Assembly (NCBI GenBank): GCA_002898375.1 | Contig: BEIN01000014.1 | Location: forward strand, 6,712 to 70,711 | DNA length: 64,000 nt | Origin: a bacterium HR37 | Lineage (GTDB): Bacteria; Desulfobacterota_D; UBA1144; Nemesobacterales; CSP1-2 | Direction of reading: 5' to 3' | In this document: piece after piece, positions 852 to 61,688 of the stretch | How the letters are laid out: every line of letters starts with the position of its first letter | Numbering within the stretch: position 1 is the first letter of the stretch | Position numbers and translations under genes: made by a program | Notes under the pieces: model-generated | Seen by the model: the letters and a program-made list of their open reading frames with translations, nothing else | Databases searched by the model: none | Told to the model about the DNA's origin: nothing

Positions 852-2231
852 TGCTTTCAGATTTGATATCCTTTCGAGATATTTTCTCATATAGAATTTC
901 CTTCTTAAACCTTTCTCGGACATGTATCTGATTTTTCCGAAGATCTTTCTCTCTTTAAATGGTCTGTCATGTAAACCAAAGCACCAGCAGATACCCGCAT
1001 AACTGTTTGGGTCTCTTCCATCTAGTGCATATTTGTTGTTTAAGTAAAGCAGTTTTTTATATGCTTCAGCGGTATCTTCTGACCACTCTATAACTTTTTT
1101 ACCCCAGTACATTCTCATATAGTTGTGGATTTTCCCTCTTCCTATGAGTTCTTCTTGGGCTGCATTCCAGTAAATATCATGAGTTTTTGCATTTTCTAAC
1201 TCACTTATGCTGTATGTATAATCCCTTTTATCTTTTTCGTGATTTTTAAGGCCTTCGGCTGCCCATTTGGGAAGAAAAGCAAGTAAATTCTCTAAATTCT
1301 TCACGTGGTAGGTGAAATTGTGTGCAAGTTCCCTGCGAATAACAAGCTGTTCAAGTAAAGTCTCAAAATTCTCTGGTTTGGTATCAACTTCTTTAGCAGA
1401 CTTTATTATATGAATAGGGCTTATATGGCCGAAGTGAAGATAAGGGCTTAAATTTGATTCTGCATCTACTGAGGGATTACTTCTATGTTCTGCAAAAACA
1501 TGATATGTGCTATCTAGAAACTTATTAAGAGCTTCTAGTGCTTCTTTACTGCCGCCTTTTAAACTGCACTCAGGAATGTACTCTGTTTTCTGGTCTTTAA
1601 ATATCACGGAGATGTTCTCTGGGTCTATATCATAAATACTTTCAAGTTTTTTCCCTTTATAGGTATACTGGGTAAAATCATTAAGAAACTTGTGGATTTG
1701 TTTCTTTATTTTTGGTCTTATGGTGTAAGCACCATACTCCATTTTATTGCTTGTATGTCTTACAGGTACAACCACGTTTGTATCTACTTCGAATACCGTG
1801 GTTTCAATCTCATGGTATATATCTCTTCTTACAAGATTCAGGTATGGTAGGTATGCTTGATCCGTAATAACTAAATGGGCCTTTTTAGCATAATTTAGTA
1901 AAGTTTCTTTAAAATGACCTTTCTTTATGTGAAGTGCAATGTTTCTGTCTTCAAGATCTTTTTTTACATCAGCTAACCCTTCAAGAAAGAATTTAAAACT
2001 TCTGTAATTTGCCTCCGGGTAGCTTAAATCCAGAACAGCTAGAACAATAAGTGGTAAATTTAGGGTATTGGAAGTGTAAATTGCATATTCAAGACTGTGG
2101 TTGTAATCAGCGCGAAAGGCTCCCTGCATCCAGTAAAGAACGTATTTGCCTTTCTTGGTGGATTGCTGTACCTGAAAAACTCGGCTTATAGCACTAAAGC
2201 TACTTAAAGATTGCTTAAAGCTGTAAAGCAT
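843..2231 (-). CDS. phr: deoxyribodipyrimidine photolyase, class II CPD photolyase-like
   Basis: 462 aa; N-terminal KGKYVLYWMQGAFRADYNHSLEYAI and overall length match class II photolyases; FAD-binding C-terminal W-rich region. Confidence 0.75.
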   Translation of the reverse strand: MLYSFKQSLSSFSAISRVFQVQQSTKKGKYVLYWMQGAFRADYNHSLEYAIYTSNTLNLPLIVLAVLDLSYPEANYRSFKFFLEGLADVKKDLEDRNIALHIKKGHFKETLLNYAKKAHLVITDQAYLPYLNLVRRDIYHEIETTVFEVDTNVVVPVRHTSNKMEYGAYTIRPKIKKQIHKFLNDFTQYTYKGKKLESIYDIDPENISVIFKDQKTEYIPECSLKGGSKEALEALNKFLDSTYHVFAEHRSNPSVDAESNLSPYLHFGHISPIHIIKSAKEVDTKPENFETLLEQLVIRRELAHNFTYHVKNLENLLAFLPKWAAEGLKNHEKDKRDYTYSISELENAKTHDIYWNAAQEELIGRGKIHNYMRMYWGKKVIEWSEDTAEAYKKLLYLNNKYALDGRDPNSYAGICWCFGLHDRPFKERKIFGKIRYMSEKGLRRKFYMRKYLERISNLKAHG

Positions 2232-8700: not shown

Positions 8701-8846
8701 GCTGTTACCAAAAGAGTTGGAAAATCAACATTTGGAAGATCACTTACGGGAAGTAATCTATACCCCATAATACCAAAAAGAAGAATCCCCAACATAATAA
8801 GCGTTGTTGCAACAGGTCTACGAATGAATACTTCAGATATATTCAT
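5754..8846 (-). CDS. RND efflux transporter permease, HAE1/AcrB family
   Basis: 1030 aa, 12-TM AcrB-like N-terminus MNISEVFIRRPVATTLIMLGILLFG...PNVDFPTLLVTASLPGASPETM. Confidence 0.85.
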   Translation of the reverse strand: MNISEVFIRRPVATTLIMLGILLFGIMGYRLLPVSDLPNVDFPTLLVTASLPGASPETMASSVATPLERQFSTIEGLTSMTSVNSLGSTRITLQFDLSRNIDAAAQDVQTAIAQASPFLPQDMPEPPTYRKVNPADQPILYIAVTSTTLPLWELHEYADTMLAQRISMVKDVAQVEIFGPQKYAVRVQLDPRALSSRGIGIDEVESAIRSANVNLPTGTLYGPDKAFTVLANGQLFKADAYRSVIVAYRNGSPVRLGELGRVIDSVEADKAAAWFVDHRGSRRSIVLAVRRQPGTNTVEVASSVKELLSSLRAFIPPSVELHLLYDRSKFILESIKDVQFTMVLTLILVVMVIFIFLRNVSATVIPSLALPLSIIGTFSVMYILGYSMDNLSLMALILAIGFVVDDAIVMLENIVRHMEMGKTALKAALDGSKEISFTILSMTLSLAAVFIPILFMGGVIGRLFREFAVTICVAILISGFVSLTLTPMLCSRFLRPPSEQKHNRLYLFTEKIFDQMLKAYESSLKFVLRHRPATMITSLTILVITGYLFFKIPKGFIPNEDRGIIFAMTEAQEGTSFDKMVELHKALSEIVRKDPNVVEFYSSVGGGTSVATSSNQGVMFFHLKPRSERNLSVEQVIEELRPKLARVPGIRVFMQNPPVIRIGGQLTKSLYQFTLQSPDTDELYHYAPILEEKLRSVPELQDVTSDLQIKNPQINVLINRDRASTLGITAHQIENALFDAYGDRWVSTIYAPNNQYKVILELEPQYQINPQLLSMLYINSSNNHLVPLDSVATIYENTGPQTINHIGQFPGVTISFNLKPGVSLSEAVAKVTEIARKVLPPTIRTSFQGAAQEFQSSLRGQGLLLVSAVLVIYMILGILYESFIHPLTILSGLPSAIFGALLTLILFRSELNIYGFIGLIMLIGIVKKNAIMQIDFALEAQRNEGKSPLEAIYQGCLIRFRPIMMTTMAALFGALPIAIGFGAGGEVRRSLGLSVAGGLLFSQLVTLYLTPVVYTYMDSLQRRVYRVFTR

Positions 8847-8864
8847 AGGATATTTCCTTGGTTC

Positions 8865-10061
8865 TTAATGTGTATGTTCTTCTCTGTTGCCGGGGCTGTT
8901 ACTTCTACTCTGTATATCTCCTTCAGGACTGTTTGTAATCTCCACCTTGATACCAGGAGCAAGTTGAAGCTGTCCTTCAACAACCACTTTCTCCCCTGGG
9001 TGAATTCCCTTTACGATAACTGTTTCATTGTGGTTGGTGCTTGCACCTAAGACTACGGGACGGGGCTCTACGGTAAGGTCGGGTTTTACTATAAAAACGT
9101 GGTAACCTTCCTGGCCCGTTTGAATTGATTGTGATGGAACTACCACTGCATTGGGTTGCGTTGTAAGTGTCAGTGTTACGTCCACAAACTGTCCTGGCCA
9201 TAGGTATTCATCCTCATTGGGAAATACAGCTTTAAGCGTTATGGTTCCCGTTTCACTGTCTACCTCATTGTTTATAAAACTTAGATGACCAGTGGCCTTA
9301 TGTGATTCATCTGAGGGAACCCGGGCTTCTACCTTGAGATCTCCAATGGCCATGTATTTTCTGATACTTGGTAGCTCTTGCTCCGGTACTGAGAATTTTA
9401 CGTAGATAGGTTTGGTCTGATTTATTACAGCAAGTACTGTATCTTTGTCTTTAACCACGTTTCCCTGGTCAACCAGTAACTCTCCTATGCGTCCGGTTAT
9501 CGGAGAACGAATATAGCAGTACTCAAGCTGGAGCTTTGCATTCTCTACAGCAGCTCTGTCTGCTTTGACTGTTGACCTTAGAACCTCTAGGTTTGTAATA
9601 AACTGATCGTATTCCTGTTTGGAGACTATTCCTTTTTTTAATAAATCTGTATAACGTCTGGCATCAACTTCCGCTTTTTTCATCTGTGCGATGTCCCTTG
9701 CCAGGTTGGCTTCAGCTTGCTTTAAAGCAGCCTCAAATGGACGAGGGTCTATTACGAACATAAGTTCTCCATTTTTTACCATCTGTCCCTCTTTGAAGTA
9801 CACGTGTGCCAGCTCACCGGCAACCTGTGATTTTACTGATACGCTTGAGAAAGCCTCCACATGACCTATTGTGTTAATTTGAACAGGAACGTCTTTTTCA
9901 ATAGCAGTTGCCACCTTTACAGGTATCCTTTGTTCCTTTTGAGTTTGTTGTGTGTGACCGCTGGAGCATGCAAGAAGCAGTGTGGTTAAGATGGCAATTG
10001 AGGCTTTTAGCAATGTAAAAAGTGCTTTTCGGGATTTTTGAGTTTGATCCTGGTAGTTCAT
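8865..10061 (-). CDS. RND efflux periplasmic adaptor (membrane fusion protein, HlyD/AcrA family), lipoprotein
   Basis: 398 aa; lipobox LLACSSG, coiled-coil hairpin and beta-barrel regions; directly upstream of the RND permease. Confidence 0.8.
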   Translation of the reverse strand: MNYQDQTQKSRKALFTLLKASIAILTTLLLACSSGHTQQTQKEQRIPVKVATAIEKDVPVQINTIGHVEAFSSVSVKSQVAGELAHVYFKEGQMVKNGELMFVIDPRPFEAALKQAEANLARDIAQMKKAEVDARRYTDLLKKGIVSKQEYDQFITNLEVLRSTVKADRAAVENAKLQLEYCYIRSPITGRIGELLVDQGNVVKDKDTVLAVINQTKPIYVKFSVPEQELPSIRKYMAIGDLKVEARVPSDESHKATGHLSFINNEVDSETGTITLKAVFPNEDEYLWPGQFVDVTLTLTTQPNAVVVPSQSIQTGQEGYHVFIVKPDLTVEPRPVVLGASTNHNETVIVKGIHPGEKVVVEGQLQLAPGIKVEITNSPEGDIQSRSNSPGNREEHTH

Positions 10062-19789: not shown

Positions 19790-21097
19790 ATGCCTGTTAA
19801 TCCCTTTAACTTAATAGGGAAAACATTAGAAGGGCAGCTGGTTAAATTTGCCAGACCAGGTGAGGGTTTTCTAACCCATTATCTGGGAAAAAATGTAAAT
19901 CCAGCGGGAAATAATTTCCCTATGGTTCTAAGTCTGATACTGGGTTCAGAGGATGGCACTTTACCTTTTAAACCTCACTCCAGTGCAGTTGAGAGTGGGA
20001 ATTTGCTTTATGGTATAGAACCTCTATCTGATAGTGATACTGAACCAGGTAATGCAGACCTAAAGGTTGTTAGTGATAAAAACCTATATGATATGGTCGG
20101 TATTATTCTGGCAGTGGTAAAAGATTTGGCTAATTTAATACCGGAGTTTATTTCCGGGAAAGCAGAGAACGGGATTGGTCGGAGTACTGTTCTTAATGCA
20201 TCCTTCTCTAATTCTAAACCTGGTACTCAGGATTCTTTCTACAACCAATTGTATCTGCGTGATTCGGGATACGTGGCTTTTTTAGTAGATGGTAGATCCG
20301 GTGGTACACCAACTGCGGAAGAAAGCAGGGGAGGTGGATACGGTTTTTCTGCATATAAGGATGATTTGCTTCAAAGGATATCGAAAAAGGGTTTTTTCAA
20401 AACCGATCCTATCAGTTTTAATGAGAATCCAGATGATTTTAAAAGCTCCTTTTCTGTTACTGAAAGTGGAGAGGATGTTAAAAACAGAGTGTTTTCTGAG
20501 CCTCTATTAAGGGAGGTTAAGCACCCAGACGTTACCAAGGAAGATAGTTCAAAGCCCGGGCTGGATTACTTAAGAAATGAGCCTGTAGATAGGTTAACTT
20601 CTTTAGATTTTTCAGTTTCTAAGCTGACTTCTTCTGATAATGGTAAACAGGAACCCCTTTTACCCAGTGGGTTACACCATTTCTACTCTGGTTCAAATGG
20701 TAAGGTTGATCTTGGTGATGTTAAAAATTTCTTTTCCGTTGCTAAGAGCGGAAAGGAGTTTATTGTAACCCTCGAGCCCGAGGGGCTTGGAAAGCTAAAT
20801 ATACAACTCAGCATGGATCAAGGTTTTATAAATATAAAGATAAATGTATCAAACGGTGTTGTAAAAGCTTTCATTGAGAACAATATCCACAGCATGGTTG
20901 ATTTGCTTCTTAACGATGGAATAAACATCGGAGGTCTCTCAATTAATATTGGGAACGGTAAAAGGAACTGGGATGAGGGTTATGAGTATAGGGCTTTTAG
21001 AGGGAATATAACCATTCCCGGTGTGGAAAGAGTATATGCATCAGGGACCCAGGGTTTTTATCGTGGTTCCAGTGGGCTTGTAAGTATCTTTGTTTAA
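19790..21097 (+). CDS. fliK: flagellar hook-length control protein
   Basis: 435 aa; C-terminal Flg_hook/T3S4 domain LEPEGLGKLNIQLSMDQGFINIKINVSNGVVKAFIENN; upstream of flgD-flgE. Confidence 0.7.
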   Translation: MPVNPFNLIGKTLEGQLVKFARPGEGFLTHYLGKNVNPAGNNFPMVLSLILGSEDGTLPFKPHSSAVESGNLLYGIEPLSDSDTEPGNADLKVVSDKNLYDMVGIILAVVKDLANLIPEFISGKAENGIGRSTVLNASFSNSKPGTQDSFYNQLYLRDSGYVAFLVDGRSGGTPTAEESRGGGYGFSAYKDDLLQRISKKGFFKTDPISFNENPDDFKSSFSVTESGEDVKNRVFSEPLLREVKHPDVTKEDSSKPGLDYLRNEPVDRLTSLDFSVSKLTSSDNGKQEPLLPSGLHHFYSGSNGKVDLGDVKNFFSVAKSGKEFIVTLEPEGLGKLNIQLSMDQGFINIKINVSNGVVKAFIENNIHSMVDLLLNDGINIGGLSINIGNGKRNWDEGYEYRAFRGNITIPGVERVYASGTQGFYRGSSGLVSIFV

Positions 21098-23453: not shown

Positions 23454-24035
23454 ATGGAGAAAAAGGACTTTAAGATACTTGTTGTGGATGATGACGATAT
23501 GGTTAGAGAGTTTGTTTCCTCAGTCTTAATCAAGCAAGGATACAGTGTGATTTCGGCAAGGGATGGATTTGATGGGCTCAGAATGCTTCTTATGGTTGAG
23601 GATATAAAGCTGGTTATAACGGATCTCAAGATGCCTGGTGCCAGTGGTATGGATATACTTGAGTATACGCAAAAAAACAATCCTGATATTGCGGTCGTAA
23701 TACTTACAGGTTTTGGCACAATCGAGGATGCCCTTGAGGCTGTTACAAAGGGAGCCTTTGACTATCTAACAAAACCCTTTAAGGTTGAGGAAATTGTGTT
23801 TGTTGCTGAGAAGGCTTTTAAACGGGAAATAATAGTGTGTGAAAACAGAGAATTGAAAAGGATTCTAAGGGATACCTATCGTGATATAGGAACGGTAAGG
23901 GATATAATTAACAGCAACGATGCTGGTGTGGTATCCAGGTGGATGGACAGAATGAACAGGTTAAAGGCTATGAATGTTCTTACCGAATCAGAGATAAAGG
24001 TACTAAGGGAAAAGATTGTAAAGACCAATGCATAA
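23454..24035 (+). CDS. response-regulator receiver protein with ~70 aa C-terminal extension
   Basis: ORF track starts at 23418; likely start is ATG 23454 after SD AAGGAGGG (MEKKDFKILVVDDDD...VITDLKMPGASGMDI...LTKPF). Confidence 0.7.
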   Translation: MEKKDFKILVVDDDDMVREFVSSVLIKQGYSVISARDGFDGLRMLLMVEDIKLVITDLKMPGASGMDILEYTQKNNPDIAVVILTGFGTIEDALEAVTKGAFDYLTKPFKVEEIVFVAEKAFKREIIVCENRELKRILRDTYRDIGTVRDIINSNDAGVVSRWMDRMNRLKAMNVLTESEIKVLREKIVKTNA

Positions 24036-25533
24036 CGGAAAGATACTGATAGTGGATGATGATCCCTTTGTAAGGGAATTCCTCTCTGAGATCCTTTCTG
24101 ATAAAGGCAGTTATGAGGTAGATGTTGCAGTAGATGGATTGGAAGGTCTAGAGAAAATAGGCAGACAGGACTACGATGTTGTTTTTACTGATTTATGTAT
24201 GCCCAGGTTAAATGGTTTTGAGTTTTTAAGGGAGGTCAAAAGACTGGAGCCTGTGTTGCCTGTAGTTGTAATCACAGGGTTTTCAACCATAGAAAATGCG
24301 GTAAATGCCATGAGGGAGGGGGCAAGTGATTTTATAGAGAAACCGTTTCAGGTTGATAAGGTAGTTTCATTAGCGGAAAGATTGGTAAATCAGAAGAGAC
24401 TTTTAGGAGGGCTTACCTCAAAGAAAAGGTATCGTCTTTCCCTGGAGACGCTAAATGCCCAGTTATTTAAAACGCTTCAGGAGATCTCAACCCTGCATAC
24501 TGTAAGTACAGAGCTTGATAACCTATACGATAACTCTGATATATACCGCAGGGTTGTGGAGATGGCTTTAAAGTTACTTCCAGTGCGAGAGGCTTTATTT
24601 GGAATCATTGATGGAAATCGTTTGAAGATAAAGAGCTCCATAGGAGTACCCAATTTTAGGGATGAGATTGAGTTTAGGGGTTCGTACATTGAAAGAGTTG
24701 TTAAGAGCAGAACCCATCTTGTTGTAAAGCCAGGTGAGTTTAATCCTGTTGACAACTCCAGGATTACCTCACCCATCCTGTGTATTCCTATCAATATAAA
24801 TGGTGAGACAATCGGTATATTAAACCTTTCTAATAAACCCGATGGCTCATCCTTTACCGATGATGAGATCCACCTTGCTCTAAATTTTGTTCAAAAAGTT
24901 GGCCTTCGATTGGAAAACAACGCTTTATATGAAACCGTCTATAGCAATCTCATTAACACCTTAAAATCGCTTGTTGCTATAATCGAAGCACGAGATCCCT
25001 ATACCAAACAGCATTCGGAAAGAGTTACTCTCTATTCTTTGGAAATAGCCGAGATGATTGGATTAAGCAACGAAGAGAAAGAGGTCTTAAAATTTGGTGG
25101 TTACCTTCATGATATAGGAAAGATTGGGGTAAGAGACACAATACTTCTTAAACCCGGAAGACTAACACCTGAGGAGATGGCAGAGGTTAGGTTGCATCCG
25201 TTAATAGGTGATCGAATAGTACAACCTGTGCAATTTCTTGAGAAGGAAAGGGAATTGATTCTGTATCATCATGAAAGAATAGATGGAAGGGGTTATCCTT
25301 ACGGATTAAAGGGAGAGGAGATCCCGTTTGTGGTGCGCATACTAAGTGTTGCTGATGCATACGATGCCATGACCTCCTCTAGGGCTTATAGGCCTGCCAA
25401 ACCTCATGAGGTTGCAATTGAGGAGATAAAATACGGTGTAAATACGCAATTTGACAAAGAGGTTGTAAAGGCTTTCTTAAACACGGAGACAGGAAAAGGA
25501 AGAAAGAAAAAGAGAAAAATCTCTGTGGATTAA
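24028..25533 (+). CDS. REC-GAF-HD-GYP response regulator, predicted c-di-GMP phosphodiesterase
   Basis: N-terminal receiver (ILIVDDDPF...VFTDLCMPRLNG), central GAF-like region, HD-GYP motifs YLHDIGKIGV and HHERIDGRGYP. Confidence 0.8.
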   Translation: MHNGKILIVDDDPFVREFLSEILSDKGSYEVDVAVDGLEGLEKIGRQDYDVVFTDLCMPRLNGFEFLREVKRLEPVLPVVVITGFSTIENAVNAMREGASDFIEKPFQVDKVVSLAERLVNQKRLLGGLTSKKRYRLSLETLNAQLFKTLQEISTLHTVSTELDNLYDNSDIYRRVVEMALKLLPVREALFGIIDGNRLKIKSSIGVPNFRDEIEFRGSYIERVVKSRTHLVVKPGEFNPVDNSRITSPILCIPININGETIGILNLSNKPDGSSFTDDEIHLALNFVQKVGLRLENNALYETVYSNLINTLKSLVAIIEARDPYTKQHSERVTLYSLEIAEMIGLSNEEKEVLKFGGYLHDIGKIGVRDTILLKPGRLTPEEMAEVRLHPLIGDRIVQPVQFLEKERELILYHHERIDGRGYPYGLKGEEIPFVVRILSVADAYDAMTSSRAYRPAKPHEVAIEEIKYGVNTQFDKEVVKAFLNTETGKGRKKKRKISVD

Positions 25534-31163: not shown

Positions 31164-32417
31164 ATGGTAGATTTTAAGGCTACGGGTTTAAATACCAGCT
31201 TCCTCATAATAAAGAGTGCTTCTAAGAGGGGATTGGTTTTAAAACCGGGGGAGATTGTAAAAGGAAAAATTGTAGAGGTATCACCTCTGGGTGATGTGTT
31301 GTTAAAGATAAAGGGAACCCTTGTTAAAGCCAAAGCGAAGCTAAATTTAGAAAAGGGGTTAGAGGGTCTTTTTAAGGTTTTAGATACTGGGGTGGATAAC
31401 ACCACCCTAAAGCTTCAGTTTGTTGAGTATTCTGGGAAAAAGATATATCCGGATTACAGTAGTGAACTCAGAGGTGATCTGGAGAAGTTAGTTAAAAGCC
31501 TGGGTGTGGTTATTAAGAAAGAAGGGATCAGTGCTACAGAGGTAAGAGGAATCTATTTTGATTTATTAAAAGCCCTACATTCTAATGCTGATACCCTATC
31601 GGACCCACTCCGTTTTGATCTGATACATCTTCTCCGGAGTTTTTTGAAATCTGATGGGCAAGGTGTAAGTGAAAGGCTTGGGATTTTTAAAGACCGAATT
31701 CCGGCTCCTTTAAAAGAGTTTATCCCTTATGGAATCTTTATTGATGAGGTAATGGAGGGAGAAAGGGAAGAAGTTTTGGGACTAAGAAAGGCTCTGCAGA
31801 ATAGTGGTGTTGCTCTTGAAGCTAAGTTAAGGCTTTTCCTTAAGCAAATTGAGAAGAAAGAAAAACAGGATATCAGGGAACTGGAAAGTTCCCTTTTAAA
31901 GGAAGATATGAAACTTAGTCTGCTCAAGATAAAAGAGCTTTTGGAAGAGGGGGCGGGTGCAAGAGAAGGGATTAGAGATAAAGGGATTCTGGAGCAGGCT
32001 AATACCCTTCTTAAGGATATAGAGACCTATCAGATACTCTCAAAGGTTACAGATTCACTTTATACGTTCTTGCCTCTAACCTGGAGGGGATTTAAGGACG
32101 TCGATATAATGCTAAAAAAAACTGGGATTGGCTGTAAAGACCAGCTTTATGTCTGCAGAATCCAATTCGATACTGAGAGGTTGGGAAATCTAACAGCTAC
32201 GGTTCTTATGTATAGAGATGGTTTCTTTGTGGTGTTTAAAACAAAAAGCCCTTTATTCTTGAAGTTGCTGAATCTTTATGTAAATGAGTTGGAGGAAGCG
32301 TTTAGAAGTAAAGGGCTTAGCTTAAAAGTGGTAAGGATCTTGGATGCTGATGAAAGCAGCTCTGATGAGCTGGATTATTCCCTATCTTTTAGGAATATGG
32401 TGGATATCAAGGTATGA
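31164..32417 (+). CDS. FliK-like protein (C-terminal Flg_hook/T3S4-like domain), paralog of the hook-length control protein
   Basis: 417 aa; C-terminal [53 protein letters not shown] follows the FliK C-terminal domain pattern; translationally coupled to the downstream FlhB-C-like gene. Confidence 0.45.
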
Positions 32418-45123: not shown

Positions 45124-45588
45124 GTGAAAATGGCAGATGAGATAAAGGAGCCCGAAAAGAATGAAAAGAAAGGTGGGAAGGGAAAGCTTCTTGTTATTGC
45201 CGTTGTACTTGTTGCAGCTGCAGCAGGAGGTTTTTTTGGTTACAAGAAGTTTTTAAAATCTCCTCATGCTAAAGAGGAGGATAAGCCTGTTAAAACCGTC
45301 CTTTTTGCCCTTGACCCGCTTATCCTAAACCTTAGGGAGCCAAATAGGTTTCTTAAGCTCAGTGCACAGTTTGAGCTTTCTGATCCCTCATATGAACCGC
45401 TTGTATCAAGCAAGGTTCCTCAACTAAGGGATATGATAATTACGTTTGTAAGCTCCAAGTCTGTAGAATCCATTTTGACCCCTGAGGGTAAGATCCAACT
45501 AAAGGATGAGATACTGCTTAGAGCAAATCAGGTTATTGGCAAAAACGTATTTAGCAATGTCTACTTTACGGAGTTTGTAACGCAATGA
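45124..45588 (+). CDS. fliL: flagellar basal body-associated protein FliL
   Basis: 154 aa, single TM, FliL core (LDPLILNL...). Confidence 0.75.
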   Translation: MKMADEIKEPEKNEKKGGKGKLLVIAVVLVAAAAGGFFGYKKFLKSPHAKEEDKPVKTVLFALDPLILNLREPNRFLKLSAQFELSDPSYEPLVSSKVPQLRDMIITFVSSKSVESILTPEGKIQLKDEILLRANQVIGKNVFSNVYFTEFVTQ

Positions 45589-46565
45589 AGGATATCCTAT
45601 CACAGGAAGAGGTAGACCTGCTTCTTCAGGCTCTGGAATCCGGAGAAATAGAAGCCGAGAGCAAACAGGAGACTGGTGGGGTCAGACCCTATGACCTTAC
45701 AAATCAGGAAAGAATAGTTCGTGGTAGGATGCCAGGCCTGGAGATAGCAAACGAGAGGTTTGCAAGGTTTTTTAGGAGTTCTCTATCTGAATTTATAATG
45801 AGGTTTGTTGAGGTTAGCGTAAGTGGGATGGAGCTTATGAAGTTTGGTGAGTTTTTAAAACTGGTTCCGTATCCCTCCAGCATAAATATCTTTAAGATGG
45901 ATAATGTCCTTAAGGGTTATGCTCTGTTGATATTTGAGGCCCCTCTTATTTTTACATTGCTTGAGCTGCTGTTTGGTGGGAAAAGTGTATCCTGGTATAG
46001 GGCTGAAGGTAGGTCTTTTACAAAGATAGAGCAACAGATAATTGTTAAGTTGGTCTCTTTGGTTTTAAGGGACCTTAACAATGCGTGGGAGCATATAGCT
46101 CCTCTTAACCCAGAGTACGTCTCTTCTGAAATGAACCCTCATTTTATAACTATTGTAACCCCTAGTGAGATCGTTATTAAAATAGAAATCCTGGTGGAGA
46201 TAGAGGATTTTAAGGGAAGGTTCTTTTTCTGTATTCCCTACGCCTTGATTGAGCCGGTCAGGGAAAGGATGTACTCAGGGATTCAGAGCGATATCCTAAC
46301 TGTGGATCGAAGATGGGTTGATAGATTAAAGGAGATATTGATGGATTCTTATTTTGAGTTGGTAGCTGAGTTGGGAAGTGTTGAGATTACACTAGAAGAA
46401 CTCTTAAACCTTGAGGTTGGTAGCATAATAAATCTGGGAAAGCCGGTAGATGAGGAAGTGGTTGTTAAGATAGAAGAGATTCCAAAGTTTATGGGAAGGC
46501 CTGGCTACAGTAGAGGTAGTCAAGCAGTAAAAATTACAAGGGTTTTGGAAACTGAGGAGGTTTAG
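45585..46565 (+). CDS. fliM: flagellar motor switch protein
   Basis: 326 aa; MKDILSQEEVDLLLQAL CheY-binding N-terminus, FliM middle domain, SpoA-like C-terminus. Confidence 0.9.
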   Translation: MKDILSQEEVDLLLQALESGEIEAESKQETGGVRPYDLTNQERIVRGRMPGLEIANERFARFFRSSLSEFIMRFVEVSVSGMELMKFGEFLKLVPYPSSINIFKMDNVLKGYALLIFEAPLIFTLLELLFGGKSVSWYRAEGRSFTKIEQQIIVKLVSLVLRDLNNAWEHIAPLNPEYVSSEMNPHFITIVTPSEIVIKIEILVEIEDFKGRFFFCIPYALIEPVRERMYSGIQSDILTVDRRWVDRLKEILMDSYFELVAELGSVEITLEELLNLEVGSIINLGKPVDEEVVVKIEEIPKFMGRPGYSRGSQAVKITRVLETEEV

Positions 46566-53951: not shown

Positions 53952-54719
53952 ATGTTGAGGGGAAAGACAGATGTGAAGCCTTTAGCCAGTTTGGACCTAG
54001 GGTATAAGAGGGAATTGGGTGAGGAGGAGAAGGAAAAGATAATAAGGGATTTTCTCCCTTTTATAAAGTACACAGCCTATAGGCTTGCATGGAGACTCCC
54101 ACCCCAACTTTCGGTAGAGGATCTTATAAGTGCCGGGATTGTAGGGCTTTTGGAGGCTCTTCAAAGGTATAAAGAGGGAGTGGCAAGGCTCAGTACCTTT
54201 GTAGAATCAAGGATAAGGGGAGCAATGCTTGATGAGCTTAGGTCTCAGAGTTGGATACCAAAGTCTATGAAAGAAAAAATCAGTGCGGTTAAGAAAACCT
54301 ATCTGGAGCTTGAATCAAAACTTGGCCGTCCACCAGAAGCAGAAGAGGTTGCTAAAAAGCTTAATATTTCGGTTGATGAGTACTATAAGATACTTCAGAG
54401 TGCAAATATGGAAGTGGTACTGAATTTTGAAAGTTTTAAGGAAAAAAACAGAAACGAAGAAAGCGTGGATCTGCTTGAGTATATTTGCGATCCTGATGCT
54501 AAAACCCCTCTTTCCGTATTAGAGGAGAGTCAGGTTAGGGAGGCAATTGCAAAAGTTATAGAAGAACTTCCTGAAAAAGAGAAGCTTGTTCTTTCACTTT
54601 ACTACTGGGAAGAGATGACCATGAAGGAGATAGGGAAGATTTTAAATATTACGGAGAGCAGGGTTTCGCAGCTACACAATCAGGCACTTTTAAGACTTAA
54701 AGCAAAACTCAATTTGTAG
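53952..54719 (+). CDS. fliA: RNA polymerase sigma factor sigma28
   Basis: 255 aa; sigma70 region 2 and region 4 HTH (MTMKEIGKILNITESRVSQLHNQALLRLK). Confidence 0.85.
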   Translation: MLRGKTDVKPLASLDLGYKRELGEEEKEKIIRDFLPFIKYTAYRLAWRLPPQLSVEDLISAGIVGLLEALQRYKEGVARLSTFVESRIRGAMLDELRSQSWIPKSMKEKISAVKKTYLELESKLGRPPEAEEVAKKLNISVDEYYKILQSANMEVVLNFESFKEKNRNEESVDLLEYICDPDAKTPLSVLEESQVREAIAKVIEELPEKEKLVLSLYYWEEMTMKEIGKILNITESRVSQLHNQALLRLKAKLNL

Positions 54720-56149
54720 TGGGTTTACCGCTCATGCAATTAAGTAGGCTTTTAAAGTTAATTGAAGAACTTTCCCACCCGGATCCTTTAAAAAGATACC
54801 GGGCTGCGGAGGCACTGGGACACGGGGATGAAAGGGCAATTTATCCCTTGATAAAGGCGTTACGTGATAGAGATCGGGGTGTCCAGGATGCAGCTATGCG
54901 TTCCCTTATATCCATAGGTGGTGAGGTCACAGCGTATATGGTGTTGCCACTTTTAAGAGATGAGCCATCGTTAATAAGTATGGCTATCGTAATACTGAAG
55001 GGCATAGGAACTGTGTCACTGCCCCTACTTCGTTCTCTTTTAAAGGATAAAGATGACACTGTCCGTCAACTTGCACTTTATCTTATCTCCGAGATCAAAG
55101 TATGCGATTATCCAGAGGATATTGTAAGGATCCTTGAAACGGATCCCAGTCCGAATGTTAGGGCATCTGCTGCACGTGTTCTCGGTGTTATTAAGTATAA
55201 AGAGGCCCTGCCCCAATTGGTTAACGCTTTAAGCGATAGTGAGTGGGTTTGCTTCTCAGCTCTTGAATCCATTGCCTTAATGGGAGATGAATCCTCTGCT
55301 GGGTTTATTGTTCCCCTTCTAAACAGTAAATCAGAGGCTATAAGGTGTGCTGCTGTTGAGGTACTGAGCAGGATAGGGGGAAAGGTATCTGTTAATGCAC
55401 TATTAAAGCACCTATCAAAAGCAGAGGGATTTGAAAAGAAAAACGTTGTAAAAAGCATGATTAAGATGGGAATATGTCCTGCTGTACCAGGGGTCTCTGA
55501 TGTGCTTATTGATATGCTAAGAAGTGGTGATTGGGGGGAGAAGATAACAGCTATAGAGAAGCTAATTGATCTTGGAGAAAAAGATGCAGTTTATCATATT
55601 GTGGACCTGGCAGGTTCACTTGATCCATCTGAGCCGGGAAATGAGGAGAGGATCTCTACCATTAAGGATCTTCTTTGTCGTTTTGGCTGTATAAGTGTTT
55701 TTGTAGATATAATTGCGGACCCATCTTTTAAATTCAGAGGAAAAACAATTGCAATTGATGTTATCAGAAGGCTTAGGTGCAGGGAAGCTATTCCTTCTCT
55801 CATGCAACTACTGGATACGGATATAAGGGATATAAGGCGGGCAAGTATGGAGGCTTTAGGAGATATGGGTTGTTACGGAGCAAAATCAGCAATGATTAAG
55901 GCGCTGGAGGATTTTGATGGCGGTGTAAGAAGATCTGCAGTTTTGGCTTTAGGGAAGCTAAAGGATAAGGGGGCTTTCGAACCGATTCTTAATCTGTTGT
56001 CCAGGGAGAAGAATCCAGAGGTAGTTGAGGAGGCAATTAAATCTCTTCTTGCAATAGATTCAGAAAGGTTCTTATTCTGCCTAAGTAGGCTGGATCCTGT
56101 ACTCAGAGAAATCGTTACTCGTTACAAAGAGCAACTGGAATGGGTATAG
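54719..56149 (+). CDS. HEAT-repeat (PBS-lyase type) protein embedded in the fliA-che operon
   Basis: 476 aa of ~14 tandem HEAT_EZ-like repeats (xxVRxxAAxALGxIGx). GTG start overlaps the fliA stop; ATG at ~54734 is an alternative start. Confidence 0.6.
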   Translation: MGLPLMQLSRLLKLIEELSHPDPLKRYRAAEALGHGDERAIYPLIKALRDRDRGVQDAAMRSLISIGGEVTAYMVLPLLRDEPSLISMAIVILKGIGTVSLPLLRSLLKDKDDTVRQLALYLISEIKVCDYPEDIVRILETDPSPNVRASAARVLGVIKYKEALPQLVNALSDSEWVCFSALESIALMGDESSAGFIVPLLNSKSEAIRCAAVEVLSRIGGKVSVNALLKHLSKAEGFEKKNVVKSMIKMGICPAVPGVSDVLIDMLRSGDWGEKITAIEKLIDLGEKDAVYHIVDLAGSLDPSEPGNEERISTIKDLLCRFGCISVFVDIIADPSFKFRGKTIAIDVIRRLRCREAIPSLMQLLDTDIRDIRRASMEALGDMGCYGAKSAMIKALEDFDGGVRRSAVLALGKLKDKGAFEPILNLLSREKNPEVVEEAIKSLLAIDSERFLFCLSRLDPVLREIVTRYKEQLEWV

Positions 56150-56946
56150 TACTTCGGGATTCTACATTTAAGCAGTTAAGGGATTTTGTATACGAAAAAA
56201 CCGGTATCTATATACCTGATTCAAAGAAGTACCTTGTTGAAAGCAGGCTGACCAAAAGGGTTTTGGAAAGAAACCTAAATACGTTTGAAGAGTATCTGTA
56301 CCTGATACAGTCAAACACAGATTTTAACGAACTTCTAAAGCTATATGATGCCATAACAACAAACGAAACATCTTTTTTTAGGGAGCCTAGGCAGTTTGAT
56401 GTGCTAGTTAAGCACATAGTGCCAAGTATTATACAAAAGCAAAAGACCGTAAAGATATGGTCTGCTGCATGTTCAACCGGTGAAGAACCGTATACGATTC
56501 GGATGCTTCTTATTGAGAATATGTTTGATACAGTTGAGGTAATTGCTTCAGATATAAGCGAAAGCGCTTTGGAGTCTGCAAGAAAGGGGGTCTACGGTTC
56601 GTATTCTGTAAGAAACGTTCCGGAGTTCTATCTTAGGAAGTACTTTAAAAACAGCGGCCAGAGCTATGAACTGGATGAGGTGGTAAAGAAAGGGGTTAGG
56701 TTTGTTAATGTTAATCTCGTGGATGAGAAGAGGATGAGGTTTATGCACGATATGGATGTCATATTCTGTCGCAATGTGCTTATCTACTTCGGTGAGGGTG
56801 CAAAGCAGAAGGCCCTATCACTGTTGTATGGATGTTTAAAGCCCGGAGGTTTTCTGTTTATAGGTTCCTCTGAGAGCCTTCATAATGTAACCCGTGCATT
56901 TAAACCCGTTATCATCGATGGGGTTATTGTGTATCAGAAGGAATAA
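56140..56946 (+). CDS. cheR: chemotaxis protein methyltransferase
   Basis: 268 aa; TNETSFFREP...IWSAACSTGEEPY SAM-binding CheR motifs. Confidence 0.85.
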   Translation: MGIVLRDSTFKQLRDFVYEKTGIYIPDSKKYLVESRLTKRVLERNLNTFEEYLYLIQSNTDFNELLKLYDAITTNETSFFREPRQFDVLVKHIVPSIIQKQKTVKIWSAACSTGEEPYTIRMLLIENMFDTVEVIASDISESALESARKGVYGSYSVRNVPEFYLRKYFKNSGQSYELDEVVKKGVRFVNVNLVDEKRMRFMHDMDVIFCRNVLIYFGEGAKQKALSLLYGCLKPGGFLFIGSSESLHNVTRAFKPVIIDGVIVYQKE

Positions 56947-56959
56947 AGGAGGTAATTCC

Positions 56960-57331
56960 ATGAGGGCACTTATAGTAGATGGTTGTAAAACCACCAGAAG
57001 GCTTCTAGGTATGTACCTTAAATCAATGGGTTTTGAGGTTGTTTTTGCTGAAAACGGACTGGATGCTTTAGAAAAGCTTGTAGATGCCGATATTAATCTT
57101 ATATTGGTTGAGCTCTATTTGCCTTATATGGATGGCATCGAGTTTGTAAAGACGGTTAAAACCAACCCTCTGAGTGTGGATATACCGGTTCTTATGGTAA
57201 CTACAGAGAGTGATAGGGAGAAAAAGGAGATGGCAATAAGAGCCGGGGTGGATGGCTACATTGTAAAACCTGTAACTGCTGATCTCTTATTGCGTCATAT
57301 TGAGGATGTGTTAAAAATCAAACCTATTTAA
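56960..57331 (+). CDS. CheY-like receiver with substituted phospho-acceptor (D-to-E) and DD-to-DG metal site
   Basis: ORF track starts at 56894; the likely start is ATG 56960 after GGAGG. Aligned with the adjacent canonical CheY: LIVDG (not VVDD), [13 protein letters not shown] (Asp57 position is Glu); Thr (LMVTTE) and Lys (YIVKP) are retained. Confidence 0.65.
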
Positions 57332-57341
57332 GGAGGTTTCT

Positions 57342-57740
57342 ATGTTTAATCCCAAGATGAAAATACTTGTTGTAGATGACTTTCCAACGATGAGACGCAT
57401 TATAAAAAACCTTCTTAAACAGCTGGGCTATGAGAACATAGAGGAAGCTGAGGATGGTATACAGGCGTATTCAAAACTGAAAAACAACGGATTTGAGTTC
57501 ATTGTATCTGACTGGAATATGCCCAATATGGATGGGTTTGAGCTTCTTAAAAAGGTTAGAAGTGATCCTCAGCTAAAGGATATTCCCTTTCTTATGGTTA
57601 CGGCCGAGGCTGAAAAGGATAAGGTGATAGAAGCTATAAAGGCGGGTGTGAGCAACTACATTGTAAAACCTTTTACGGCTGAGGTTCTTAGGGAAAAAAT
57701 GGACAGGATTATGGAAAAGCTCAAAAAACAGGAGCGGTAA
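57342..57740 (+). CDS. cheY: chemotaxis response regulator
   Basis: 132 aa; [13 protein letters not shown]...[12 protein letters not shown]...LMVTAEA...YIVKPF; all five conserved CheY residues present. Confidence 0.9.
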
Positions 57741-57745
57741 AGGAT

Positions 57746-59413
57746 ATGTCCGGTGAGATGGAGGAAGTGGTAACAGAGTTTATACTGGAGTCAAAAGAAT
57801 CGTTAGATAAGCTGGACTCTCTCTTTGTTGAATTTGAGGAGAAGGGATACGATAAAGCTATAGTCAATGAGATTTTCAGGATAGTCCATACTATTAAGGG
57901 TGCAGCTGGTTTTCTTGGATTTAAATCCATAGTGGATATATCTCACGGGGCAGAAAATATCTTAAAAAAGCTAAGGGATGGTGAGATCCCGCCTACAGAT
58001 AGGCTGATTGATGTACTCCTTAAAAGCACCGATAAACTTAGGGTTCTTATTAACCACATTGAAACAGGGAATAGTTTTAACGAGGATGTTGGTGAGTTGG
58101 TAAAAGAGCTTGAGGATTCCCTTAAGGAAGCACAATCAAAAGGGCAGAAGATGGTTCGGTCAGAATCTGCTCTGGAAGCCGAAAATCAGGTGCCGATAGA
58201 TTATGAGAAAGCGGTTTTTGAGAGAAGAGAGAGAGTCCAGACACTAAGGGTTGATGTGGAGAGGCTAAATGAGGTAATGGATCTTACGGGGGAGGCAGTT
58301 TTAATAAGAAACAGGCTTTTAAATATTGCAGGTTACTTTGAGAGAAAGTTTGCAGACGATCCGTATGTAAAGGGTTTCCTTGAAGCGGTCTCATCTCTTA
58401 ACCTTGTAACCTCTGATATGCAGATTGCTGTTATGAAAATGAGGATGCAGCCAATAAGCAGGGTTTTTAACAAATTCCCCCGCCTTGTAAGGGATATATC
58501 TAAATCACTCGGGAAAGAGGTTGAACTTAGGATTTCAGGAGAAAACACAGAAGTTGATAAATCGGTTATTGAGGAGATAGATGACCCCCTTGTTCATCTT
58601 ATGCGAAACGCAATAGACCATGGCATAGAAACCCCTGAGGAAAGAAGGGCAAAGGGTAAACATGAAAAAGGTATTATTTCCATAAATGCCTTTCAAAGGG
58701 GAAAACAGATTATTATAGAGATCTCGGATGATGGTAGAGGACTGGATGTGGAGAGGATAAAGGGAAAGGCAATCGAAAAGGGAATTATAACCGAGGATGA
58801 GGCACAAAGGATGTCGGAGGATCTGGCTATAAACCTTATCTTTACGCCAGGCTTTTCTACGGTTGATGTTTCTACCGAGTTTAGCGGACGTGGTGTTGGA
58901 ATGGATGTTGTTAAAACAGCCGTCTCTAAGCTAAATGGGTATATAGAGGTTTTTTCGAGAAAGGATAAGGGGACAACATTTAGAATAAGCATTCCCCTTA
59001 CCCTTGCAATAATTCAGGCCATAATAGTGCGGTCTATGGGGGTTCAGTATGCTATTCCTCTAAGCTCGGTTGAGGGGCTCTTAAAGTTGGGTTCCAGCGA
59101 TGTAAGAAAAGTATCAGGAAAGAGAATGCTTTGCGTACGTGAGAAAACCCTTCCGCTTTTTGACCTCTCAGCTCTACTGGGTTTTGGGTGTGGTGAGGGA
59201 ATACAATGTGAATACGGTGTTGTTATCGCGGTAGGGGAAAGACGGTTTTGTATTTCTGTGGATGAGCTCCTTGGACTTGAGGAGATTGTGGTTAAACCAA
59301 TTACTGGCTTGGATGTATCATCTTCCTACGTTGTCGGAGCAACAATAACTGGAGATGGAAGTGTTGTGCTTATTCTTGACCCATCGGGAATTGCAAGGGG
59401 TATTTTTGGATGA
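57746..59413 (+). CDS. cheA: chemotaxis histidine kinase
   Basis: 555 aa; Hpt (HTIKGAAGFLGF), dimerisation and HATPase domains (N box DHGIE, G1 DDGRGLD, G2 GRGVGMD), C-terminal CheW-like domain. Confidence 0.9.
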   Translation: MSGEMEEVVTEFILESKESLDKLDSLFVEFEEKGYDKAIVNEIFRIVHTIKGAAGFLGFKSIVDISHGAENILKKLRDGEIPPTDRLIDVLLKSTDKLRVLINHIETGNSFNEDVGELVKELEDSLKEAQSKGQKMVRSESALEAENQVPIDYEKAVFERRERVQTLRVDVERLNEVMDLTGEAVLIRNRLLNIAGYFERKFADDPYVKGFLEAVSSLNLVTSDMQIAVMKMRMQPISRVFNKFPRLVRDISKSLGKEVELRISGENTEVDKSVIEEIDDPLVHLMRNAIDHGIETPEERRAKGKHEKGIISINAFQRGKQIIIEISDDGRGLDVERIKGKAIEKGIITEDEAQRMSEDLAINLIFTPGFSTVDVSTEFSGRGVGMDVVKTAVSKLNGYIEVFSRKDKGTTFRISIPLTLAIIQAIIVRSMGVQYAIPLSSVEGLLKLGSSDVRKVSGKRMLCVREKTLPLFDLSALLGFGCGEGIQCEYGVVIAVGERRFCISVDELLGLEEIVVKPITGLDVSSSYVVGATITGDGSVVLILDPSGIARGIFG

Positions 59414-60648
59414 GTGCAATATCAAAGGAGGAAATCATGGAGCAGTATATTGGATTTTATCTCGACCAAAATGAGTATATGATTCCTGTATTAAATGTAC
59501 GGGAGATTATAAATATGCCCCCTATAACAAGGATTCCCCTGGCTCCTGCCTATATCGAAGGGGTTACAAACTTGAGAGGAGTTGTGGTTCCTTTGGTTAA
59601 TCTCAAAAAGCTTATGGGATTGAAGGGGATGGAAAAGAATGAGGCGGTAGGTTATGAATTGGGTAATAAGGTTATCATAATAACTCATGGAGGCATGCTT
59701 TTTGGTGTGGTTGTAGATAAGGTAAGCGGTATAATAAGTGTGGAGGAATCAAGTATTGAAGCAACAGAGAGTGTTTTCCACAGCTCTTTAGAGCAAGCTG
59801 AGGGTATAGTTAAACTTAAAGACCGGGTTGCTGTTTTGCTTGATACAAAGAGGTTGCTTCCCGAAGGAGAGCTGGAGGTGTTTGAGGATCTTCTGGTTTC
59901 TTTTAAGGAAAGAGAAGATGGGAAGGTTGAGTTAACCAAAAAAGTTCAGACGATGGGTGGAGAAATTACGGTTAAGGAGCTTAAGGATGCAAGGGATTTC
60001 TTTGAAAAAAGGAAAGCGGACTCTGGTGATCCAAGATATATGGTTCTTGATGATATAGTGGATTTTATAAATGCCCTTGCTGAATGTGACTATGATAGAG
60101 CGGATAGGGTTATTCAGAACATGATAAAGAAGGGACAGGATGAACTTTTTAGTGAGATAGGGAAAATAACAAGGAAACTTCATGATACTATTAAGAGCTT
60201 TAAACAGGCTATTGATCCAAAGATAAAGGAAGTGGCGATGAGAGAGATACCTAGTACAATCGAGTCACTTGAGTTTGTTATTGAGAAATCAGAAGAAGCT
60301 GCAAATAAAACAATGAGCATAGTTGAGAAGTATATACTGGGTATGGATGATCTTGATACCCATATAAAGAGGCTTAGCGGACCGGAAGTATCGGTAGAGT
60401 ACCTAAAGAACTTTAAAAATAACCTGGAGGATGACCTGATTGAAGTGCTTACAACTCAGTCCTTTCAGGATATAACGGGACAGCTTATAAAGAAGGTAAT
60501 AAAGCTTATAGGGGATATAGAAGAGGAACTTGTAAGGCTTATAAAGAACTTTGGTGAAAGGGTGGAGGTGGGCTATAGAACTGAGGCAACTTCCCAGAAG
60601 ATAACCCAGGCCGATGTTGATGAGCTTTTAAGAGAGTTTGGGTTCTAA
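59410..60648 (+). CDS. CheW-like domain fused to a CheZ-like CheY-P phosphatase domain
   Basis: N-terminal ~150 aa CheW fold (YIGFYLDQNEYMIPVLNVREII...GVTNLRGVVVPLVNL). C-terminal region has the CheZ catalytic motif TQSFQDITGQLIKKVIKLI and a CheZ-like C-terminal CheY-docking helix ADVDELLREFGF. Probable start at the internal ATG ~59437 after AGGAGG. Confidence 0.7.
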   Translation: MSAISKEEIMEQYIGFYLDQNEYMIPVLNVREIINMPPITRIPLAPAYIEGVTNLRGVVVPLVNLKKLMGLKGMEKNEAVGYELGNKVIIITHGGMLFGVVVDKVSGIISVEESSIEATESVFHSSLEQAEGIVKLKDRVAVLLDTKRLLPEGELEVFEDLLVSFKEREDGKVELTKKVQTMGGEITVKELKDARDFFEKRKADSGDPRYMVLDDIVDFINALAECDYDRADRVIQNMIKKGQDELFSEIGKITRKLHDTIKSFKQAIDPKIKEVAMREIPSTIESLEFVIEKSEEAANKTMSIVEKYILGMDDLDTHIKRLSGPEVSVEYLKNFKNNLEDDLIEVLTTQSFQDITGQLIKKVIKLIGDIEEELVRLIKNFGERVEVGYRTEATSQKITQADVDELLREFGF

Positions 60649-60653
60649 AGAAG

Positions 60654-61688
60654 ATGATAAGGGTTCTTATAGTTGATGACTCAGCATTTATGAGAAATGC
60701 CCTAAAGACCATGCTTTCTTCCGATCCCGAGATCGAGATTGTAGGTGTTGCACGGGATGGAGTAGAAGCAATAGAGAAGGTTATGAGTTTAAACCCTGAT
60801 ATAGTGACAATGGATGTAGAAATGCCCAGAATGGATGGTCTTACAGCACTAAAACGTATTATGGAGATAAAACCCGTTCCGGTAATTATCGTAAGTTCTC
60901 TGACGTCTGAGGGAGCAAAGGTTACACTTGATGCCCTTGATATCGGTGCTGTGGATTTCATCCCCAAAAACCTATCCGAGCTTTCAGTAGATATTGTGAA
61001 GTTAAAAGAATTGCTTATTGAGAAGGTGAAAAAAGTTGCCGGGAGAAAAAATATAAGAAAAAGGGTAAGTCCCTTTCCTTATAAATCAAACGAGGTTAAC
61101 AGGGCTCACCTAACCTCAAGTAGAAAAATAGGGGTCGTTGCTATAGGAACCTCAACAGGAGGTCCAAGGGCACTTCAGGAGATCATCCCAAAACTGCCAA
61201 AGAACTTTCCGGTTCCAATTGTAATTGCCCAGCATATGCCTGCAACCTTTACCGGACCCTTTGCCGAAAGACTAAACCAGATAAGTCAGATTACAGTTAA
61301 AGAAGCTGAGGATGGAGAGGTCTTGAAACAAGGGGTTGCTTTTATCGCACCGGGAAGGGGGCATATGAGACTGCGAAAAAGGGGTATAGAAACCGTTATC
61401 TCCATAACAAGTGATGATGAGTATATATACCGCCCATCGGTTGATCTTCTTATGACCTCAGTTGCAGAGTGTTTTCCGGGAAAGGCCCTTGGTGTGATAC
61501 TTACCGGTATGGGAAATGACGGTCTTAAGGGTATTTCTGCCTTAAGAGAAAGTGGGGGAAAGGTGATTGCACAGAATGAGGAGACGTGTGTGGTATATGG
61601 AATGCCAAAGGCAGTGGTTGAGGCAGGATTGGCGGATAAGGTTTTACCTCTGGAAGATATAGCTGGTGAGATAGTGAGTTCTCTCTAA
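60654..61688 (+). CDS. cheB: chemotaxis methylesterase/deamidase
   Basis: REC (ILIVDDSAFMR...VTMDVEMPRMDG) + CheB catalytic domain (VAIGTSTGGPRAL...). Confidence 0.9.
   Translation: MIRVLIVDDSAFMRNALKTMLSSDPEIEIVGVARDGVEAIEKVMSLNPDIVTMDVEMPRMDGLTALKRIMEIKPVPVIIVSSLTSEGAKVTLDALDIGAVDFIPKNLSELSVDIVKLKELLIEKVKKVAGRKNIRKRVSPFPYKSNEVNRAHLTSSRKIGVVAIGTSTGGPRALQEIIPKLPKNFPVPIVIAQHMPATFTGPFAERLNQISQITVKEAEDGEVLKQGVAFIAPGRGHMRLRKRGIETVISITSDDEYIYRPSVDLLMTSVAECFPGKALGVILTGMGNDGLKGISALRESGGKVIAQNEETCVVYGMPKAVVEAGLADKVLPLEDIAGEIVSSL

Follow-up and report, generated by a model that had tools for sequence, protein, structure and literature searches.

An aspartate-less receiver, most probably a recent derivative of a canonical second CheY, in a flagellar-chemotaxis operon

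The stretch of 64,000 nucleotides analysed here as a whole (from here on the window) contains a flagellar-chemotaxis operon in which a CheY paralogue, Y1, has lost the phosphorylatable aspartate. By position as well as by sequence Y1 is orthologous to a second CheY that is conserved in Nitrospirota/Thermodesulfovibrionales operons and is canonical there as a rule; its state as a pseudo-receiver is therefore derived and lineage-specific. That the protein is a lineage-specific aspartate-less receiver (ALR) derived from canonical Y1 we hold with high confidence. The more complete explanation that we favour, to which we give about an even chance of being right in all its parts, is that window Y1 is a folded, expressed and non-phosphorylatable receiver, recently derived from canonical Y1 and kept for phosphorylation-independent binding, most likely at CheA P1 or the array.

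The Y1 gene (Table 1) begins with an ATG located 13 nt past the stop codon of cheR (56944-56946). A GTG at 56894, which would yield a protein of 145 amino acids, was rejected as start codon since it overlaps cheR and has no ribosome-binding site and since the N-termini of the orthologs match the equivalent of the ATG. The product is recognised by the Pfam profile PF00072 with 79.9 bits (cutoff 30.2) over positions 2-110 of 111 and shares 40% identity with Y2, the CheY next to it (BLASTP). In an AF2 model made from a 42-sequence alignment (pLDDT 93.2) five strands and five helices follow one another in the order of a predicted (beta-alpha)5 fold, and Foldseek superimposes the model on E. coli CheY with a TM score of 0.94 and an rmsd of 0.9-1.0 A.

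An initial annotation had described a CheY-like receiver in which Glu stands at the site of Asp57 and the acidic pair DD is changed to DG, the equivalents of Thr87 and Lys109 being retained. Three independent alignments (BLASTP to the neighbour, phmmer to the E. coli and Salmonella CheY structures, and MAFFT with 123 sequences) agree with this description. All three place Glu51 opposite CheY Asp57 and Gly8, the second residue of the pair D7-G8, opposite CheY Asp13; none places an Asp at the acceptor position. In the numbering of E. coli CheY window Y1 reads D12=D, D13=G, D57=E, N59=Y, T87=T (T81), A88=T, Y106=Y and K109=K (K103). Of the features of a canonical receiver it has thus the Thr and the Lys and lacks the acceptor Asp and the DD pair. 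The beta3-alpha3 loop is changed also around the acceptor: Tyr53 is found at D+2 (CheY N59) and Leu54 at D+3 (CheY M60), and at position 56, directly before the acceptor, the T/S of the Y1 family is replaced by Val; behind the conserved threonine (T+1) A88 is replaced by Thr. In the family, Asp is found at the acceptor position in 99%, Asn at D+2 in 100% and Met at D+3 in 100% of the members. The same G/E/Y residues are present in four other independent assemblies (L001, L002, L016 and L017), and for this reason are not sequencing errors.

Table 1. Features of the window discussed in the text
Feature	Position	Strand	Remarks
Probable fliM	45585..46565	+	assigned only from the N-terminus of the translation, MKDILSQEEVDLLLQ
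HEAT-repeat protein	54719..56149	+	conserved operon member between fliA and cheR
cheR	56140..56946	+	PF01739 and PF03705
Shine-Dalgarno AGGAGG	56947..56952	+	7 nt 5' of the Y1 ATG, right behind the cheR stop; read from the sequence
Y1 gene (CheY paralogue)	56960..57331	+	123-aa single-domain aspartate-less pseudo-receiver
Gly8, codon GGT	56981..56983	+	CheY Asp13 site (second of the acidic pair, binds Mg2+); 119 of 119 family members have Asp
beta3-alpha3 loop V-E-L-Y-L	57107..57121	+	Y1 family consensus T/S-D-L-N-M
Glu51, codon GAG	57110..57112	+	phospho-acceptor position (CheY D57)
Thr81	57200..57202	+	CheY Thr87 equivalent, kept
Tyr100 ... Lys103	57257..57268	+	CheY Tyr106 and Lys109 equivalents, kept
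Y2, canonical CheY	57342..57740	+	quintet DD/D/T/K complete; identity 58% to E. coli CheY and 77-83% to Y2 of relatives
cheA	57746..59413	+	Hpt (7-98), dimerisation (165-232), HATPase and CheW-like domains
cheW::cheZ fusion	59410..60648	+	PF01584 118 bits, PF04344 112 bits
cheB	60654..61688	+	from domain search

Pseudo-receivers, which account for several percent of all receiver domains and whose mechanisms in bacteria are largely unknown, are defined as PF00072 domains in which at least one quintet residue is missing; those without D form the ALR subset (PMC12632262). Window Y1, which matches PF00072 and is without D and without the second acidic residue of the DD pair, falls under both definitions. 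It is encoded together with cheA, cheW, cheR and cheB, as is expected of CheY; with the CheY equivalog profile of NCBIfam (NF007901, cutoff 189) it scores 86.1 bits versus 187.2 bits for Y2. Judged from this score and from its FliM-contact residues (Table 2), it is not CheY sensu stricto.

The genes in the window are arranged in the order flhA-flhF-flhG-fliA-HEAT-cheR-Y1-Y2-cheA-cheW::cheZ-cheB, and the gene directly downstream of Y1 is indeed that of a canonical CheY, as had been noted at the outset. A domain search of window CheA, including the linker of about 65 residues, detected no P2 (CheY-binding) domain, and CheY and CheB would therefore have to dock straight on P1. The CheZ part of the CheW::CheZ fusion has kept the QDITGQ motif and the C-terminal peptide ...DVDELLREFGF, whose roles would be those of the corresponding parts of E. 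coli CheZ. By the fusion the CheY-P phosphatase would be brought inside the receptor array. A full-text literature search for a paper on a CheW-CheZ fusion found none. The fusion (PF01584 plus PF04344) is also encoded in L004 (9925-11175), L005 (9510-10700) and L007 (9565-10761). A special link between Y1 and the fusion, which had been considered at first, is not borne out: since the fusion is conserved beside canonical Y1 in relatives, it is not specifically tied to the pseudo-receiver state. In this operon a HEAT/PBS-lyase-type repeat protein of 355-634 amino acids is always encoded between fliA and cheR, in the relatives as in the window (L001 7775-9190, L004 4009-5913, L005 5044-6111, L007 4272-6143).

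The order of the operon in the window is shared with L001/L002 and with L004, L005 and L007. The neighbourhoods of the homologous proteins P0001, P0002, P0007 and P0077 are colinear with it (flhA-flhF-flhG-fliA-HEAT repeat-cheR-REC-REC-cheA-cheW::cheZ-cheB). Five further Nitrospirae metagenome-assembled genomes (MAGs), reached via CheA, have two tandem receivers upstream of cheA, Y1 and Y2 both being canonical; in a search of 185,579 species genomes the CheA closest to that of the window came from Nitrospirae MAGs (58% identity). Y1 is canonical in all eight syntenic relatives examined. Across all loci the downstream receiver, Y2, shows 77-83% identity, and its identity to E. coli CheY is 58-64%. 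For Y1, the upstream receiver, the value among the relatives is 58-93%, and window Y1 is 56-61% identical to these. Any Y1 is only 36-45% identical to any Y2 (window Y1 36-40%), and the two are clearly separate sequence groups. By its position between cheR and cheY and by its best reciprocal similarity, which is to Y1 and not to Y2, window Y1 belongs to the Y1 family, with which it shares also signature residues including C9. Of the invariants of the family it lacks D13, D57, N59 and M60, which are G, E, Y and L, and the F-x-x-G-G tail; the canonical pattern D-D/D/N/T/K plus tail has thus become D-G/E/Y/T/K without tail. The tail of canonical Y1 is a short conserved extension after alpha5 (...ILK-x-x-F-x-x-G-G-..., for example in L004 7001-7390), which is absent also from E. 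coli CheY and from Y2.

How rare the G/E/Y state is became evident from searches for homologs. Among 5.8 billion proteins there is one cluster at 95% identity (P0001), and the next match is at only 61%. The canonical quintet DD/D/(T or S)/K is present in 117 of the best 120 homologs, and in two others the DD pair reads E-D; within the aligned best 120 matches the G/E/Y combination is confined to the query and P0001. The protein is thus not a distinct type of pseudo-CheY, as might have been concluded from the initial annotation. It is rather a lineage-specific derivative of Y1. P0043, encoded on a single metagenome contig of 1,260 bp, has Ala at the acceptor position (T-A-L-N-M-PYMDG) and is otherwise canonical, which is either a second independent loss (D57A) or a sequencing error. 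A scan of 241 million metagenome records for DNA encoding E-x-Y-x-PYMDG retrieved two more contigs, both with a third allele of the same clade, besides one unrelated dehydrogenase-like ORF; deeper-branching Glu-type relatives of Y1 were not among the matches to this pattern. The known members of the G/E/Y clade are three alleles, at least 95% identical, from five metagenome samples. An exhaustive search of representatives yielded nothing new. Its best 150 matches were dominated by hybrid proteins with several receivers, the domain scores of which add up, and the single-domain matches among these 150 were only Y1-type proteins (54-55% identical).

The changes by which window Y1 departs from its family are concentrated in the two phosphorylation loops. 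In the Y1 family 46 positions are at least 90% conserved, of which 39 are kept in the window. The seven changed ones are I3A, D13G, D57E, N59Y, M60L, E94K and I123V (E. coli numbering except for I3). Four of the seven conserved positions in the beta1-alpha1 and beta3-alpha3 loops, which are the sites binding Mg2+ and the phosphoryl group, are changed versus three of 39 elsewhere (Fisher p = 0.006 for this grouping, which was made post hoc; p = 0.087 for the same contrast with an a priori set of 13 active-site positions). Had the positions outside the loops drifted at the rate of the loops, three or fewer changes in 39 would be expected with p ~ 1e-10. The identity to the family consensus is 0.62 in the beta3-alpha3 loop of window Y1 versus a family mean of 0.99, and 0.77 versus 0.82 in alpha1 and 0.80 versus 0.83 in alpha2. 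Alpha1, beta2, alpha2, beta4, the beta4-alpha4 loop and the K-P-V-T loop are typical of the family; low outliers are the beta3-alpha3 loop, beta1, the alpha4-beta5 loop, alpha5 and the C-terminus, and with respect to identity to the consensus alpha5 and beta1 are the family minimum.

From the Glu at the acceptor site and the broken acidic pair it had been anticipated that Y1 is unlikely to be phosphorylated by CheA. D13G, D57E and N59Y, read from the sequence, support this. Phosphate transfer from CheA-P would be very unlikely because the exchange of Asp for Glu moves the nucleophile by one methylene group, D13G removes one Mg2+ ligand and a bulky Tyr stands at D+2. One could nevertheless imagine that signalling continues with a glutamyl phosphate on Glu51 or with phosphorylation of a nearby residue, the equivalents of D12, T87 and K109 being present; in the D57N variant of E. 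coli CheY, Ser56 can take up the phosphate. In window Y1 there is no Ser or Thr left at position 56, and with three simultaneous changes in the catalytic geometry efficient phosphotransfer appears so improbable that we consider a remaining acceptor function far-fetched. Receivers in which one or more of the quintet residues are missing have been classed as pseudo-receivers on just such grounds (PMC12632262).

Improbable as well, although less so, is that window Y1 acts as a constitutive phosphomimetic CheY, which would bind FliM and/or the C-terminal peptide of CheZ and thus bias the motor or titrate CheZ off CheY-P. In its favour it can be said that Glu at D partly activates some response regulators (PMC12632262, PMC4395418), that the equivalents of T87, Y106 and K109 are in place, and that K+2 is Val, which belongs to the class of residues shifting CheY to active conformations (PMC12632262). 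The AF2 model fits BeF3-activated CheY (rmsd 0.9) slightly better than apo CheY 3chy (rmsd 1.6), which is weak support, because an alignment of canonical sequences drives the model. The Val at K+2, however, is a trait of the whole family rather than of the pseudo-receiver, and by itself the exchange of D for E fails to activate E. coli CheY, as summarised in PMC4395418. Above all, the binding face argues against it. The residues of E. coli CheY that contact the N-terminus of FliM include K91, K92, I95, Y106, V108, K119 and K122 (PMC3774744, Table 3), and the sequences were compared at the positions given there (Table 2). Window Y1 has D91, R92, K95, H119 and D122, the rest of the Y1 family being likewise unlike CheY, whereas Y2 keeps K92, V95, K119 and R122. 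V. cholerae CheY4, which is without the K119-type contact, fails to bind FliM (PMC3774744).

Table 2. Residues of Y1 and Y2 at FliM-contact positions of E. coli CheY
Position	E. coli CheY	Y2	Window Y1	Y1 family
90	A	A	S	A/N
91	K	E	D	D (119/119)
92	K	K	R	P/E
95	I	V	K	K/R
99	A	I	I	F/L
106	Y	Y	Y	Y
108	V	V	V	V/I
119	K	K	H	N/H
122	K	R	D	N/D

The peptides to be bound point in the same direction. Both the N-terminal FliM peptide of the window and the C-terminal peptide of CheZ are acidic. The FliM peptide matches the CheY-binding motif of E. coli FliM. In Y1 the two acidic peptides would have to face D91 and D122, which singles out Y2 as the putative motor- and CheZ-binding CheY. The Y1 family, whether canonical or not, is probably not the motor/CheZ-binding CheY, and the role of a CheY mimic at the motor or at CheZ, which had been suggested for the pseudo-receiver, is disfavoured.

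More serious is the objection that window Y1 could be a young relic, the function of which was lost with the mutation of the phosphorylation site and which is drifting to a pseudogene without having acquired a stop codon or a frameshift so far. Within the clade dN and omega are higher for Y1 than for any other of 10 operon genes (omega 0.34 versus 0-0.23), the difference not being significant (Fisher p = 0.088), and Y2 has zero replacements. The tail conserved in the family is gone, the clade is so narrow that there was only a short time under selection, and P0043 with its D57A (on one short contig) suggests that sporadic loss does happen. Divergence from the relatives, divided by the divergence among the relatives, is also somewhat raised: the ratio is 1.40 for Y1, 1.33 for cheA, 1.26 for cheW::cheZ and 1.07-1.09 for cheR, cheB and Y2 (the ratios of flhG and fliA are unreliable because some of the loci are truncated). 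We do not claim a strong acceleration in the lineage of Y1, since 1.40 is only modestly above the value of cheA. Against a relic speaks that the ORF is intact and free of indels in all three alleles from five samples, that a strong ribosome-binding site and the tight operon spacing are kept, and that outside the phosphorylation loops so few conserved positions are changed; the confident prediction of the fold (pLDDT 93) also favours a retained function. The replacements within the clade are all conservative (R/K, M/I twice, V/L, V/I, S/G and I/T), and dN/dS is about 0.33 (three alleles, about 7N:6S; one-sided p = 0.049 versus neutrality); owing to the youth of the clade purifying selection is thereby only weakly demonstrated. 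We consider it unlikely that Y1 is a relic. Most likely window Y1 is an aspartate-less receiver that functions although it is not phosphorylatable, rather than a gene in decay, and it is rather probable that a function has been retained under a constraint that would be relaxed but real.

How such a receiver could have come about may be pictured as follows. Some non-motor CheYs in other systems with multiple CheYs, for example in alpha-proteobacteria, serve as phosphate sinks. By analogy canonical Y1 would most simply be a second substrate of CheA, acting as phosphate sink, modulator or competitor for CheA-P. In one narrow lineage this normally canonical second CheY of the flagellar-chemotaxis operon would recently have become aspartate-less. 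With this its phosphorylation-dependent role would have been lost in the lineage of the window, and all of the flux from CheA would then go to Y2 (CheY) and CheB. Window Y1 would have been kept because binding to a partner persists without phosphorylation.

As to the partner, alpha1 is the face with which receivers dock on a kinase or an Hpt domain. In window Y1 alpha1 and alpha2 are best kept, the alpha4-beta5-alpha5 face is unlike the FliM/CheZ-peptide face of CheY, and no P2 was detected in CheA; on these grounds CheA P1 or the array, and not the motor, would be the likeliest partner. Our proposal, deduced from the sequences, that Y1 binds there as a signal-independent decoy or as a constitutive subunit is tentative. 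Somewhat more speculative is the idea that a phosphorylatable auxiliary CheY has turned into a constitutive component of the array or of CheA, either as a non-accepting decoy of P1 or as a ligand of the Y1 partner that is always 'on', by which gain or adaptation would be reset. Should this be true, the canonical orthologs (56-61% identical) would provide a natural before/after pair for a phosphorylation-independent activity.

The case is a clean one, with a single domain, a well-understood pathway, canonical immediate orthologs and few changes, which are concentrated in two phosphorylation loops. The natural pair could be of use for finding out what receivers retain after the loss of phosphorylation and what the role of the second CheY in Nitrospirota che operons is. 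A new kind of system it is not: ALRs are common and have many independent origins, and what is unusual here is the youth of the ALR and that its canonical orthologs are known.

In a survey of ALRs Maule et al. (2015) found Glu at D in 26% of the proteins and an acidic residue at triad-2 in only 29% (PMC4395418). Window Y1, which has Glu at D, has lost triad-2 and retains triad-1, the Lys and the Y/T pair, matches the commonest pattern of this survey. Like other ALRs and pseudo-receivers (PMC4395418, PMC12632262) it is recognised by PF00072 and is without the phosphorylatable Asp, and its phylogenetic position among canonical receivers fits the view that ALRs arose many times independently. Most of the characterised ALRs form the N-terminal domain of a transcription factor (ChxR, HP1043, RitR and others) or of FrzS; unlike these, window Y1 stands alone in a flagellar che operon, is very young and has known canonical orthologs. 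The receiver of FrzS from Myxococcus xanthus (PMC1974792) is likewise atypical, without the phosphorylatable Asp, and part of a motility pathway, but its residue at D is Ala, a long coiled coil is fused to it, and it functions in type IV pilus motility.

V. cholerae CheY4 (PMC3774744) and other non-motor CheYs are encoded, as is window Y1, in addition to a true CheY and are without the FliM-contact residues on alpha4-beta5-alpha5; they differ in that they keep the phosphorylatable Asp and take phosphate from CheA, of which window Y1 is predicted to be incapable. The Cle proteins of Caulobacter (PMC5677366) are CheY-like proteins that are active without phosphorylation, binding to the motor when activated by c-di-GMP; they keep the Asp and need an Arg-rich C-terminal extension (ARR) that binds c-di-GMP. 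A Cle-type identity was ruled out for window Y1, which ends with ...VLKIKPI at residue 123 and has no ARR. Likewise ruled out was CheV, the protein being a single domain of 123 amino acids that is not fused to CheW.

Some other genes of the window may be mentioned. In the flagellar region a protein with REC, GAF and HD (HD_5) domains is encoded at 24028-25533 (+), which from its set of domains we would guess to be an HD-GYP-like response regulator with c-di-GMP phosphodiesterase activity. In the same region the FliK-type hook-length-control domain (PF02120) is found in two separate ORFs, 19790-21097 (+) and 31164-32417 (+). At the left end of the window, at 843-2231 (-) and 5754-10061 (-), there are non-flagellar genes for a photolyase-domain protein and for an AcrB-type RND pump with an HlyD-type adaptor.
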